Below are positions 6,025 through 9,890 of a DNA stretch of 64,000 nucleotides, piece after piece. The position numbers and the translations under genes were made by a program. Position 1 is the stretch's first letter; the number at the start of each line of letters is the position of its first letter. The stretch lies in assembly GCA_041738235.1 (NCBI GenBank), contig JBGSQF010000013.1, positions 257,899-321,898 of the forward strand, written 5' to 3'. Source of the stretch: Minisyncoccia bacterium. Its GTDB lineage: Bacteria > Patescibacteriota > Minisyncoccia > Moranbacterales > GCA-2747515. A model generated the notes under the pieces. That model was given only the letters and a program-made list of their open reading frames with translations. It ran no database searches and was not told the origin of the DNA.

Positions 6025-7512
6025 TTATATATCTTTCAATATCTTTACCACTCCTTTATTAGCGTCAACTTCTACCATCATACCATCTTTCAAAACCTTT
6101 GTGGCGATCTTGGTGCCGATGATGCAGGGTTTTTTGAGTTCGCGAGAAACGATGGCGGCGTGACAAAGGATCCCCCCCTCATCGGTAATAAACGCACCGG
6201 CACGTTCCATTGACGCTATGAAGTTCGGCGTAGTCATCGTAGCAACAAGCACATCACCCTTTTCAACACTCTCACCATCCTCGGGAATCAGAACGATCTT
6301 CACTTTCCCAACAACTTTACCCCGAAATGCTGTAACACCGTTAAAGCTCTGTACGAGTTCAGCACTTTGGTCAAAGACAGACCTTTCAGATATATATAGT
6401 GCTGCGGCGTCTCCCGAGAGAACACCGTAACCCGTTTCATCAGAATAACACAACATATCCCGTTTCCTCTCTAACAATTCCGCCTGATGGTCATACTTTC
6501 CCTGAAGCGCTTCGGTTACCTCGCTTGGTTCGAAATATAGTATGTCATGGTATGAGATGTTCAAGCGCTTTGCGGCTTCACGAAAAAGTGGTTGCATCAA
6601 AGCGCATGCGTGATGGAAATAATCCGCGCGCTGAGTTCTCAGATAGACAATATCCCGCACTTGATAGACCATCTGCATATCCTCCGAGGTCATGATCTCT
6701 TGCATCCGTCGAAGTGAATGGTCCACTTGATCCTTGTGTGCTTCATCCTCTTTCAAAGCCTGAACCGCCTCCTCATAGCTCAGTAACTTCAATCGTGCTT
6801 TAACATCTCCTTCCGTCCACCATGATCCGACAAAATACCGAACTCCCAACCATCCAAATGATCGCACATGTTCCCGAATTCTTTCATCAATGTTCTCTTT
6901 TCTAAGAAGTACAAGATCCAGAAGATGCTTTCGCTCCCTGTCCGTGTCCGTTGAACGACTCGAACATGTTGCCGCCTCGAACCAACTCTCATATTCCTGT
7001 TCGGTCGATGCATGCTCCCGCAAGATCCGATCCACGATATCCATCTCCGGCTTCTCGAAAAATGCGATCGTATACCAAGCGCTATATGTTGAGGCTCTAT
7101 CAGCAAATACACCTATCTTCTCACACAGATCGTTCGTTAGTAGCGCCTCAAGATCCTTTTCCACTAAGAGAGACTCCGATAATTTGACCAAGTCTTCACC
7201 AGCAGACTCACAATCCTTTATAAGGTTGTCAATATACTCTTTTCCTTCTGTCTCTATCTTTTTCCGCACCTGAACAGCAAACTGATCACGCTTATCAAGT
7301 ACATTAAAGAAATCATAATTATGTTTCTCATGATCGGCGATATGCTTAAACCACGGAACAGGATGTGTTAATTGCATTGCTTGAGATAAGACCTCCACAT
7401 CCTCAAGCCCCCTGAGTATAAGAGAGGATGCCAGGAAAGGTTCCGTTCTTTGCCCGAAATATACGATATTGTCATTATCTATCTTTGGGATTTCCCTCTT
7501 TGGTCTTCTCAT
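6025..7512 (-). CDS. Paralog 4: divergent N-terminal domain + PEP-utilizing His domain
   Basis: ...GDVLVATMTTPNFIASMERAGAFITDEGGILCHAAIVSRELKKPCIIGTKIATKVLKDGMMVEVDANKG. The 3' ~100 nt are nearly identical to paralog 6. Confidence 0.8.
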   Translation of the reverse strand: MRRPKREIPKIDNDNIVYFGQRTEPFLASSLILRGLEDVEVLSQAMQLTHPVPWFKHIADHEKHNYDFFNVLDKRDQFAVQVRKKIETEGKEYIDNLIKDCESAGEDLVKLSESLLVEKDLEALLTNDLCEKIGVFADRASTYSAWYTIAFFEKPEMDIVDRILREHASTEQEYESWFEAATCSSRSTDTDRERKHLLDLVLLRKENIDERIREHVRSFGWLGVRYFVGSWWTEGDVKARLKLLSYEEAVQALKEDEAHKDQVDHSLRRMQEIMTSEDMQMVYQVRDIVYLRTQRADYFHHACALMQPLFREAAKRLNISYHDILYFEPSEVTEALQGKYDHQAELLERKRDMLCYSDETGYGVLSGDAAALYISERSVFDQSAELVQSFNGVTAFRGKVVGKVKIVLIPEDGESVEKGDVLVATMTTPNFIASMERAGAFITDEGGILCHAAIVSRELKKPCIIGTKIATKVLKDGMMVEVDANKGVVKILKDI

Positions 7513-8195
7513 ATGTTGACAATAGACTCTTTTTTTATGATCTTTACCACCCCATTCTCCACATCTACTTCGACCAGATCCCCGTCTTTCAAAACCTTTG
7601 TGGCGATCTTGGTTCCGATGATGCAGGGTTTTTTGAGTTCTCTGGCAACAATGGCCGCGTGACAGAGCATGCCTCCCTCATCGGTTATGAATGCCGACGC
7701 CCTCTTCATAGCCGGCAGAAACTCGGGAATGGTCATCGGAGACACGATAATCTCTCCTTCTTGAACCTCCAAAACATGCCTAAGGTTTCGAACAACTCTC
7801 ACAAGCCCCCTGATTGACTCTCCTTCATATGCAGTTTGTCCGATAATTTCTTTCACTAAGATCTTGGATGTCTTCTTATTCTCAAAAAGTAAATTCGGAT
7901 GTTTCTTTTCAAATTTAGACAATCTTTCCTGTTCCCCATATGCACCGGGAATATATACAAAATGCTCACTCCTCAATCTAAGGACTTCCGACGTCGGAGG
8001 ATTTCTTATTTCTTCTTCAAGAATATAATTTTGATACCCTCTCAACTCAGGATAAAGAACTTCCAACGTCGCAGAAAGAACTCTTCCTCCGATATCAAAA
8101 TACTCATCTCCACTCCTCCAGCTCTTCACAATCCCTTTCAACTCTTCTGGGGTTCTACTATCTAGTAGTGTATTCCAAATATAAAAGAAATGCAC
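7509..8195 (-). CDS. Paralog 5, truncated (228 aa): retains the linker and PEP-utilizing His domain but lacks most of the N-terminal domain
   Basis: ...GEIIVSPMTIPEFLPAMKRASAFITDEGGMLCHAAIVARELKKPCIIGTKIATKVLKDGDLVEVD. ATGA start/stop overlap with paralog 4. Confidence 0.6.
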   Translation of the reverse strand: MHFFYIWNTLLDSRTPEELKGIVKSWRSGDEYFDIGGRVLSATLEVLYPELRGYQNYILEEEIRNPPTSEVLRLRSEHFVYIPGAYGEQERLSKFEKKHPNLLFENKKTSKILVKEIIGQTAYEGESIRGLVRVVRNLRHVLEVQEGEIIVSPMTIPEFLPAMKRASAFITDEGGMLCHAAIVARELKKPCIIGTKIATKVLKDGDLVEVDVENGVVKIIKKESIVNI

Positions 8196-8261
8196 ACAAT
8201 ATTTCTTGAATTGTTTTGCAAATTCTTTTAATTCAAATGCGCTCGATAAATTTTTCTTCTG

Positions 8262-8558
8262 CTAAATTGGATAGAAATACTCCTTCTGAATACTCTCAAA
8301 GTCATTAAGAATTTTCTCCAAAAAAGACAAGCTTGTTTTATTTTTAGACAGTATCTTATCCTGGATATATCGGACGGACTGCGAATTTTCCCATATCTCA
8401 ACTGCTCCATCATGTAAATAATATACAACTGGATACTTAAAAGGCAAAGATATATGCAACATCTTCTCTATGCCAAGAGAATTCGCATAATACCACGCTG
8501 CTTGCGTGATAATCTGTCGATCTCGAGTATAGGCCAACTTAAGAACCTCTTTTTGCAT
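8262..8558 (-). pseudogene. Orphan N-terminal fragment (98 aa) of an array paralog; with 7509..8195 it looks like a decayed or internally deleted copy
   Basis: PFKYPVVYYLHDGAVEIWE resembles the paralog 1 N-terminus PFYPWYILHDDVL. The locus is ~450 nt shorter than intact paralogs and split over two frames. Confidence 0.45.
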
Positions 8559-8567
8559 AGTTCTTGC

Positions 8568-9890
8568 TTATCTTAGTATTTTTACCACTCCTTTATTAGC
8601 GTCAACTTCTACCATCATACCATCTTTCAAAACCTTCGTGGCGATCTTGGTTCCGATGATACAGGGTTTTTTGAGTTCGCGACTCAATATCGCCGCATGG
8701 CATGTAATACCCCCTTCCTCGGTCACAAATGCACCGGCCTTTCTGAGAATGGGCATCATATCAGGCGTCGTCATGTTCGCAACCACGATATCGCCCTCTA
8801 CAAATTTCGCGAAATCTTCAGGATCACGAATAATCTTTACGAGACCGGAAATTTTCCCCTGAGATGCCACCGTTCCCGTCAGCGAAGAAACATCCTGCAC
8901 ATCTTCTTTGAGACACTCTTGTATTTTCCACATGTCCTCCCCAACAACGCATCGAACGGCGCCGTCCGCCACAACTATAGAATGTGCCCATGTTCGTTCT
9001 TGAATAATTCTTTTAGGAGGAATCTTTCGTTGTGTGACTTCCTCGGGCATGCAATGCAAGAGTTCTTGATACGTGAGGTAAAACGTATCGGCAAGCGCTT
9101 CCAGCCTTGGAATATACGCATAGGTTGCCTTATTGAGCATATCCGTCCGATGTGTCCGATAAAATACGATATATTGCATCAAATCTACCAAATAGGACTG
9201 TCTTGGCCCAAGTATTTCTTTGGCACGACGTATCGCATTCTTAATACCCTCTTTTTCCTGAGCATACCCATTAAGATAGTTCTCTTCCTCCAGGATACGC
9301 TTATTCTCCGTCGCAGCCTCAAAAGTATACGGGATATTTCTCCCATACCGCGAGAGTATCCATGCGTATTCTTTAATGTGCTTTCGTATATCACGCGTCG
9401 TCACAAGATCATATTGTTCTTGCTTGTAATAATTATTCCTCAATGGGATATTTAACGCATCCAACAATAACTTCATCTCCGACTCCGATGCATTCTTTGC
9501 CAATTCCGTTCTCATGCGCGCAAAAACGAGTTCGTCCCAAGCCCATATTATCAAAACAGCGGGGGAATAATTTTGAAAAGCGGTGAGAAAATCCTCAATA
9601 CCTTTTTCCGTTGAATGCATCAGTTTCTCCTCACGACGATCGAATTCCATTTGTATTCGCCCGAAATCCTCCTGTGTGATCACTTTCTCCAAACATGCCT
9701 TGCAGGCATTCATATTATATGTTTCATACCAATATTCATGATTCGCAGAAATAGCGTCAGTGATAACAACGGGATTATCAAGAAGTCCGACATAATCTCC
9801 AGGGTAAGACATTCCCCTCCAAATAGATCCGAGTAGAAGAGGTGGATAATTCCGGGTTACTGTGCGAAAAAATTTTTTTTGTTGCACCAT
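8568..9890 (-). CDS. Paralog 6: divergent N-terminal domain + PEP-utilizing His domain
   Basis: ...GDIVVANMTTPDMMPILRKAGAFVTEEGGITCHAAILSRELKKPCIIGTKIATKVLKDGMMVEVDANKG. Confidence 0.8.
   Translation of the reverse strand: MVQQKKFFRTVTRNYPPLLLGSIWRGMSYPGDYVGLLDNPVVITDAISANHEYWYETYNMNACKACLEKVITQEDFGRIQMEFDRREEKLMHSTEKGIEDFLTAFQNYSPAVLIIWAWDELVFARMRTELAKNASESEMKLLLDALNIPLRNNYYKQEQYDLVTTRDIRKHIKEYAWILSRYGRNIPYTFEAATENKRILEEENYLNGYAQEKEGIKNAIRRAKEILGPRQSYLVDLMQYIVFYRTHRTDMLNKATYAYIPRLEALADTFYLTYQELLHCMPEEVTQRKIPPKRIIQERTWAHSIVVADGAVRCVVGEDMWKIQECLKEDVQDVSSLTGTVASQGKISGLVKIIRDPEDFAKFVEGDIVVANMTTPDMMPILRKAGAFVTEEGGITCHAAILSRELKKPCIIGTKIATKVLKDGMMVEVDANKGVVKILR

Follow-up and report, generated by a model that had tools for sequence, protein, structure and literature searches.

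Eight neighbouring genes in the first 14 kb of a 64-kb stretch of DNA from a Minisyncoccia bacterium (Patescibacteriota; contig JBGSQF010000013.1, positions 257,899 to 321,898) raise the question of how genes can differ over most of their length and still end in nearly the same nucleotide sequence. The whole stretch is referred to here as the window and is numbered from its first letter. The eight genes, named P1 to P8, encode H-type proteins and lie on the minus strand together with one ATP-grasp gene. Their N-terminal bodies either share 20-28% of their amino acids or cannot be aligned, and all eight proteins end in a swivel His domain (PF00391, the PEP-utilizers mobile domain of Pfam; E-values 1e-22 to 1e-26). 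An initial annotation of this sequence had attributed the sharp step in identity to ongoing gene conversion or to the shuffling of N-terminal cassettes onto a constant 3' end. Here, we identified at least one short-tract conversion of ~106 nt between P4 and P6 and a partial homogenisation of six of the copies, and found that the sharp boundary at the protein level is largely a matter of family-wide purifying selection or domain-level constraint. It is very likely that purifying selection on the tail and short-tract conversion between direct repeats have acted together, and that the genes concerned encode the H-type subunits of a split, rifampin phosphotransferase (RPH)-like small-molecule dikinase, the estimate covering both statements jointly.

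A tract shared by P4 and P6

P4 (6025-7512, minus strand, 495 aa; PF00391 E-value 1.3e-23) consists of a variable N-terminal body followed by the swivel His domain, and P6 (8568-9890, minus strand, 440 aa; PF00391) of an RPH-like substrate-binding fold followed by the same domain. The last ~35 codons of this domain in P4 (6040-6145, minus strand), from the codon for E of RELKKPC to the codon for I of VVKIL, are 96% identical to their counterpart in P6 (8577-8682, minus strand), with 4 differences in 106 nt, and the identity collapses directly outside these limits. The 55 identical nucleotides noticed initially are in fact 56 out of 56 (6044-6099 and 8581-8636), and the similarity over ~101 nt (6044-6144 and 8581-8681) does contain three mismatches, located at 6100/8637, 6115/8652 and 6124/8661.

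Silent sites indicate that this similarity goes beyond that of the proteins. We calculated the same-codon rate as the share of identical-residue positions that also have the identical codon, and took the expectation from the codon usage of the genes themselves. For the tails of P4 and P6 the codon is shared at 28 of 33 such positions, compared with 12.6 expected (binomial p = 4e-8), and upstream at 13 of 36. The initial annotation had predicted a lower synonymous divergence (dS) in the 3' module than elsewhere, and this was found: by the Nei-Gojobori method, dS between P4 and P6 falls from 1.92 upstream to 0.33 within the tail. Across all pairs in the window, the same-codon rate of the last 35 codons is 0.53 against 0.37 expected, whereas it stays at the level of chance in the upstream half of the His domain (0.31 against 0.33) and in the GGxxCHAAIVSR motif (0.36 against 0.34). 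Between genomes the rate for the last 35 codons is 0.355, and there is therefore no family-wide constraint on the nucleotides.

Further evidence came from L047, a Logan contig that is syntenic with the window and was assembled independently; it served as the sole outgroup in all trio tests. The synteny comprises a ribosomal-protein operon, ribH, PPDK_N, five paralogs and then L32, NusB and RNase III, and the backbone is 86.6% identical to the window over 6.2 kb. BLAST searches with the body domains assigned L047 orthologs to P1 (67% amino acid identity), P2 (59%), P4 (43%), P6 (88%) and P7 (55%), and found none for P3, P5 and P8. At the DNA level, P6 and its ortholog are ~91% identical throughout, up to the last ~105 nt; in the last two 20-codon bins the identity is 0.72 and 0.67 to the ortholog but 0.98 and 0.81 to P4. 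At the informative sites of the trio, 23 tail sites follow P4 and one follows the ortholog, compared with 25 and 604 upstream (Fisher p = 5e-28), and the contrast persists within the His domain alone (21:1 in the tail, 2:74 upstream; p = 4e-18). Codons of the ortholog type flank the tract on both sides, the last being AGT at 8682-8684 and the first CTA at 8574-8576, and dS between P6 and its ortholog, 0.23 upstream, reaches saturation in the tail. Distance matrices, in which window P4 and P6 are denoted W4 and W6 and the L047 paralogs o1 and o7, gave the same picture: every ortholog pair is mutually nearest in the upstream half of the His domain, whereas in the tail this holds for P2 alone, W6 being nearest to W4 (94%) and o1 to o7. 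Because the trio counts and the distance matrices are both discordant with orthology, we conclude that a DNA tract of ~106 nt was moved between P4 and P6.

Could the likeness have arisen with no transfer of DNA, from near-invariant amino acids written in preferred codons under purifying selection plus codon bias? Such a view would be in line with the conservation of the tail motif across phyla, with the DNA identity of most tail pairs in the window (72-84%, near the expectation for random synonymous codons), and with the raised same-codon rate of non-orthologous window-L047 pairs, which is 0.47 (0.48 with P2 and P8 left out) compared with 0.35 upstream. However, the GGxxCHAAIVSR motif is even more conserved and has no codon sharing, P8 retains the same amino acids in the same operon with saturated silent sites, and the tail rate across genomes is only the 0.355 given above. 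For P4 and P6 the trio test refutes this explanation, since 23 sites leave the ortholog exactly where P4 is matched. We regard it as very improbable.

A second alternative concerns the P6 body, whose dS to L047 (0.28) is below that of the ribosomal-protein backbone (0.31-1.07, median ~0.65), while silent sites in the bodies of P1, P2, P4 and P7 have reached or nearly reached saturation and the dS of ribH is 1.7. The P6 body (~8683-9890) might have come from an L047-like lineage by recombination between genomes with a crossover at the start of the tail; the tail would then be the old resident, and tails in general would be homology arms for swapping specificity cassettes. In agreement with this, the block of high identity runs from the start of P6, just past the P7 tail, to 8682, and only one of the two genomes has P3, P5 and P8. 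On the other hand, an intragenomic event would still be needed to make the P4 and P6 tails 96% identical, given that their dS is no older than the split of the two lineages, and donor and resident tails of ~75% identity would make a poor crossover substrate. Moreover, with ~100 silent sites the lower dS of P6 relative to the backbone is a hint and no proof. Import of the body is in our opinion improbable as the explanation of the tract, although part of the discordance of P6 could stem from the exchange of a body cassette through crossovers at the tails. As for the cassette shuffling proposed initially, the P6 body, a low-divergence island bounded by tails, is suggestive of it.

The conversion reading also allows some statements on direction and age. 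At its centre (GCCAC.AAGGTTTTGAAAGATGG.ATGATGGTAGA), the tract has the P4-type sequence, and its flanks share states with the P6 ortholog. P6 was probably the acceptor, at least for the central ~40 nt. The dS of the tract (~0.2-0.3) resembles or is smaller than the backbone divergence of the two genomes, which places the event around or after the split from the L047 lineage. It is not very recent, and the description of the conversion as ongoing was overstated for a tract that already carries its 4 differences.

Conservation of the tail and the other paralogs

The near-copies that had been noticed at the end of every paralog proved to be one family of direct repeats of 235 nt with eight copies, 60-74% identical to the reference copy (521-755, 2060-2294, 4474-4708, 6035-6269, 7534-7768, 8572-8806, 9907-10141 and 12238-12472), each forming the 3' end of a minus-strand open reading frame (ORF) with a PF00391 domain. 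A 38-nt core, CTCAAAAAACCCTGYATCATCGGNACCAAGATCGCYAC, is present in five of the eight tails, with zero occurrences expected by chance; among 241 million metagenome records it was matched only twice, both times in unrelated contigs and only within a tail. Seven pairs in the window share exact runs of 23-56 nt (23-29 nt outside P4/P6), and the longest exact run among 2201 cross-genome pairs is 20 nt, two pairs of true close orthologs apart.

The position of the repeat, which closes each gene of a compact operon at its 3' end, would also suit a functional element at the nucleotide level, such as an RNA structure, a target of a small RNA or a regulatory site kept by selection, and signals for translational coupling or processing are possible at such places. 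Yet no Rfam match was found in the tails (a scan of positions 1-16000 gave two sub-threshold chance matches, both outside them), the folding energies resemble those of shuffled sequences (z-scores from -1.5 to +1.1), and the nucleotide sequence is absent from P2, P8, their orthologs and other genomes. The identity is, in addition, lowest in the last 15-20 nt, beside the following gene. We give this explanation almost no credence.

In the protein, the tail corresponds to the C-terminal half of the swivel domain, starting six codons past the catalytic histidine of CHAA. Its motif, RELKKPCIIGTKxATxVLKDGxxVEVDAxxGVVxI, is near-constant in arrays of Moranbacteria, Saccharibacteria, Woesearchaeota and others, and is near-invariant in 42 P6 orthologs that are only ~40% identical overall. 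Amino acid identity among the window paralogs is 0.75 in the tail and 0.48 in the upstream half of the His domain, and between window paralogs and distant arrays the two values are 0.64 and 0.47. Since the step between tail and upstream part recurs across genomes of the Candidate Phyla Radiation (CPR) and of DPANN archaea, it is a property of the family. The argument that a boundary this sharp cannot be left by an old duplication does not hold on its own, as the same step separates unrelated CPR and DPANN genomes. That identity falls below 30% immediately upstream, as had been stated, holds only approximately: paralogs compared over model columns 25-92, in the upstream half of the His domain, share 43-54% of their residues (~32-45%, or 19-27 of 60 positions, in a first alignment), and the values below 30% are those of the N-terminal bodies.

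Which of the other tails have taken part in homogenisation? P2 had been described as escaped, and this is supported by a same-codon rate at chance and a saturated tail; its divergent motif, ELGTPC.TGIK.ALQVL.DGMKVE.NADEGIV, also occurs in its L047 ortholog. P8 has escaped as well. Its tail is saturated (proportion of synonymous differences 0.93-0.95), with same-codon counts of 9/29, 11/29 and 9/28 against P4, P6 and P5, and it provides an internal control, having conserved tail amino acids and saturated silent sites within the same operon. Outside P4/P6, tail dS spans 0.6-1.2. It is 0.6-0.8 for P4-P5, P5-P6, P1-P7 and P3-P6, compared with at least 1.65 upstream; P4-P5 (0.61) share an exact run of 29 nt, and P3-P6 (0.80 in the tail, saturated upstream) one of 26 nt. 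With P2 and P8 left out, the tail same-codon rate is 0.63 within the window and 0.49 within L047, and ~0.35 upstream in all classes, which, together with the raised rate of the non-orthologous window-L047 pairs, points to an older shared homogenisation and an additional one in the window lineage. In P1, the tail reads GGT ATG ATG ... GCT AAT as in P4, P6 and P3, whereas its ortholog has GGG GAT ATG ... GCG GAT, and the three-base change from GAT to ATG in common with the neighbours suggests a short converted patch (trio test p = 0.002-0.014). Thus, gene conversion is strongly supported for P4 and P6 by the drop in dS and the trio test, and the case for homogenisation of P1, P3, P5 and P7 is weaker.

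A similar transfer appears to have occurred in L047 itself. In the L047 orthologs of P7 and P1, one and the same insertion of ~110 nt follows VEVD (L047 8496-8640 and 15373-15540). It provides a different C-terminus, DADRGVVRIL[QE]RA with an added extension rich in Lys and Glu, and contains a stop codon and a small hairpin (GGAGTCCCGTCGGATGATGGGAC). Downstream of it lie the orphaned original ends of the tails, whose orthology to the ends of window P7 and P1 can still be recognised. An insertion shared by two non-orthologous paralogs is best explained by an independent tail-to-tail transfer, and could be either an indel spread by conversion or a small element that targets tails. Unequal crossing-over was also considered for the presence or absence of P3, P5 and P8, and no diagnostic hybrid tails were found at the junctions inspected.

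Several observations weigh against the conversion reading or limit its reach. Polarity and timing depend on one outgroup, since searches with the P4 and P6 proteins found L047 alone as a close relative, the next best matches being 43-48% identical; a metagenome scan with P6 peptides found no relatives. The sites shared by P4 and P6 form a mosaic, 15 matching the P4 ortholog and 11 the P6 ortholog, and leave the direction ambiguous. GC content at third codon positions shows no consistent shift between tails and upstream parts, as might be expected from GC-biased conversion. Outside P4/P6, the trio tests fail correction for 55 tests, and the identity of the tails is near the value for identical amino acids with random codons. 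In other genomes, the tail and upstream same-codon rates are ~0.43 and 0.355 within genomes and 0.359 and 0.317 between them; this within-genome excess is small, and homogenisation is therefore not general in the family. Individual arrays vary in this respect: the tail and upstream rates are 0.49 and 0.27 in L002 and 0.44 and 0.37, a slight difference, in L001, and no tail signal was detected in L005 and L014. Finally, the two copies in P4 and P6 are known from the assembly alone, and a related scaffold, L044, has a gap of N letters in a His domain of this kind.

This last point bears on a possible artefact of metagenome assembly or polishing, in which a repeat was collapsed or one tail was built from the reads of the other. 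The window does come from a metagenome-assembled contig, an exact repeat of 56 nt is at or above common k-mer sizes, and no second assembly of this genome was found by exact-protein look-up or metagenome scans. However, the copies are not one collapsed sequence, being distinguished by 4 differences inside the tract and by their ends and flanks. To produce P6 in this way, two switches within 106 nt would be required; furthermore, the gene order agrees with the independently assembled L047, which has its own separate tail-to-tail transfer. An artefact is, in our view, highly unlikely.

A proposed mechanism and the array around it

The preferred explanation, selection on the tail combined with conversion between tails, could work as follows. 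Strong purifying selection acts on the last ~35 codons in CPR and DPANN genomes alike, presumably because each paralog has to dock via its tail onto one common ATP-grasp partner; that the tail is a partner-interaction module, as suggested initially, is a reasonable inference. Such selection would keep the tails ~72-84% identical in DNA and yield the sharp step in protein identity. The residual DNA similarity, with exact runs of 17-29 nt, would in turn permit homologous recombination between direct repeats, by which a RecA-type process may copy short tracts from tail to tail, and conversion would restore the identity between them. Older or shorter events are probably behind the excess of shared codons among P1, P3, P4, P5, P6 and P7; P2 and P8, whose silent sites have drifted, would no longer take part. 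The docking role of the tail and any selective benefit of homogenisation are, like the RecA-type process, what we infer.

Ectopic gene conversion and concerted evolution are known in bacterial multigene families, such as tufA/tufB and the rRNA operons. The P4/P6 case resembles these in its near-identity, silent sites included, between old paralogs, in a tract tree that disagrees with that of the flanks, in the location of the tract within the most constrained part of the gene, and in direct repeats only a few kb apart. It differs in that the tract covers ~106 nt, half of one small domain, and joins paralogs that elsewhere have 20-28% protein identity. Other differences are the CPR-type host, the homogenisation of six of eight copies and the lack of an evident antigenic or expression-switching role. 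What we describe is a known process in a new setting, a little-studied enzyme family.

An alternative that we hold to be unlikely, though less so than those above, would assign the tails a more active part. They would be portable homology arms by which bodies are exchanged, gained and lost between paralogs and genomes, the docking half remaining matched to the ATP-grasp hub. Hints in this direction are the low-dS island of P6, the saturation of the other bodies within a backbone of ~87% identity, the restriction of P3, P5 and P8 to one genome, and the shared tail insertion and orphan tail fragments in related contigs.

Such fragments were observed in L044 and L045, near-identical strain contigs that differ over 8.1 kb solely by the gap of N letters inside a His domain and one single-nucleotide polymorphism in a tail (DG[D/G]LVEVD). 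Each of the two carries a stand-alone orphan tail fragment of 46 aa between genes (the L044/L045 sites are L044 12185-12325, L044 13615-13636 and L045 7851-7957).

The remaining H-type genes of the window, all on the minus strand and ending in PF00391, are arranged on both sides of P4 and P6. P1 (514-2025, 503 aa; tail 514-627) carries the 38-nt core, as does P7 (9900-11234, 444 aa; tail 9900-10013). P2 (2053-3615, 520 aa; tail 2053-2166) is not homogenised, P3 (4473-5936, 487 aa; tail 4473-4580) is partly so, and P8 (12237-13739, 500 aa; tail 12237-12344) has kept its amino acids with saturated silent sites. P5 (7509-8195; tail 7509-7640) is a short-class copy in an interrupted frame, which as a whole extends over 7509-8558. 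Together with an ORF of 98 aa (8262-8558) it makes up one frame of 350 codons, whose sole in-frame TAG lies at 8262-8264; the tail is intact and still P4-like despite the premature stop. The interruption could be due to a pseudogene, a sequencing error or read-through. The stand-alone ATP-grasp gene (PPDK_N, 11266-12207, minus strand; PF01326 E-value 4e-99) lies among the H-type genes. It is the single copy in the 64-kb window, where no further PF00391 or PF01326 domain was found elsewhere.

Compared with L047, the array forms a hypervariable island (window 514-14245, L047 5746-15453) in a backbone of ~87% identity, and its contrasts in dS and gene content suggest allelic replacement or the exchange of cassettes. 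It is adjoined by ribH in the window (13772-14245) and in L047. The PPDK_N gene of L047 (6242-7179) is split by a frameshift near residue 212, with 80% identity to the window protein before this point and 65% after it. One ORF on the strand opposite to the array (3843-4340, plus strand, 165 aa) lies in an island of 58-65% GC in a context of ~40% GC. It is kept in L047 at 62% amino acid identity and had no Pfam match, even at E-values up to 10. A histidine phosphatase was considered for this ORF and rejected, the one match being a faint N-terminal BLAST hit (E-value 0.14) to a His_Phos_1 protein of a related array.

A family of probable split dikinases

The proteins of the array belong to a family for which databases use the name phosphoenolpyruvate (PEP) synthase. 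They share with PEP synthase and pyruvate phosphate dikinase the PPDK_N ATP-grasp domain and the PEP-utilizers mobile domain; the C-terminal PEP/pyruvate-binding TIM barrel of those enzymes (PF02896) was not detected in any of the nine proteins at E-values up to 0.01. Because this domain is absent from all of them, the nine genes do not encode PEP synthases.

RPH (PDB 5fbs/5fbt/5hv1; PMC4844700) resembles the proteins of the array in sequence and, for P6, in modelled structure. The ATP-grasp protein matches the RPH ATP-grasp domain over its full length (5hv6, E-value 2e-60; 5hv6/5fbs, E-value ~1e-60 over residues 3-312) and is 58-67% identical across phyla. All eight paralogs have the motif T-x-x-GG-x-x-C-H-AA with the catalytic His, and the swivel domain has sequence matches in PDB to PEP synthase and to RPH (RPH residues 763-866). 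For P6, an AF2 model (pLDDT 92.5) was compared by Foldseek, and the six best PDB matches were all RPH (5fbu/5hv1; E-value 2e-13, TMq 0.55-0.60). The RPH-like substrate-binding fold was modelled for P6 alone; the other seven bodies are linked to each other by weak BLAST matches. RPH differs in being a single chain of 860 aa, whereas the ATP-grasp domain of the window is a separate protein. The sequence identity of the body to RPH is ~15%, and nothing here points to rifampin as a substrate.

A split arrangement has been described for the two-component small-molecule dikinases HpeHI, CreHI and PpsAB (phenylphosphate synthase), in which an ATP-grasp subunit phosphorylates the swivel His of a separate substrate-binding subunit (PMC12167813). 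The window genes would be analogous in having a separate ATP-grasp protein and a substrate-binding subunit with a C-terminal swivel His domain and a T/SxxGGxxxH motif (PMC12167813), and the domains of both systems are homologous to those of RPH. The single ATP-grasp subunit is presumed to be the common phosphoryl donor for all eight swivel domains. The systems differ in that HpeHI, CreHI and PpsAB each combine one ATP-grasp with one H subunit and use phenolic substrates in free-living bacteria, while the window has one among eight highly diverged H-type genes, in an array that adjoins a ribosomal-protein operon in a reduced genome.

The same family is present in many CPR bacteria and DPANN archaea, often with 4-6 paralogs per array. 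Fused versions were observed in L001, where an ORF of 697 aa (146-2239) contains ATP-grasp, a short body and the swivel, and giant ORFs with two tandem swivel domains were found in L002 (3522-7511) and L033 (9925-13732). The related arrays of L044, L046 and L048 are interleaved with His_Phos_1 phosphatases and a HAD hydrolase, and also hold riboflavin genes (flavokinase, riboflavin synthase, DMRL synthase and an FAD-synthetase-like gene), M20 peptidases, OTCase and FGase. Such neighbours may hint at the substrates.

With regard to the conversion event itself, its value lies in being a clean and quantified example in a CPR-type genome; that such an event takes place is unsurprising. It carries a practical warning: an identity boundary of this kind is mostly domain conservation, and silent sites together with an orthologous outgroup are needed to reveal a transfer. 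Of greater interest, as by-products, are the way in which the enzyme is arranged and the fast turnover of the locus. The array marks an undescribed arrangement in which one ATP-grasp subunit apparently serves eight very different subunits of body plus swivel, in an enzyme family with a wide distribution among CPR bacteria and DPANN archaea, whose members are usually annotated, wrongly, as PEP synthase. If the tails do serve as homology arms, these organisms would possess a recombination-driven repertoire of kinase specificities with fast turnover, and tails that act as anchors might allow a quick diversification of metabolite phosphorylation in organisms of minimal metabolism.

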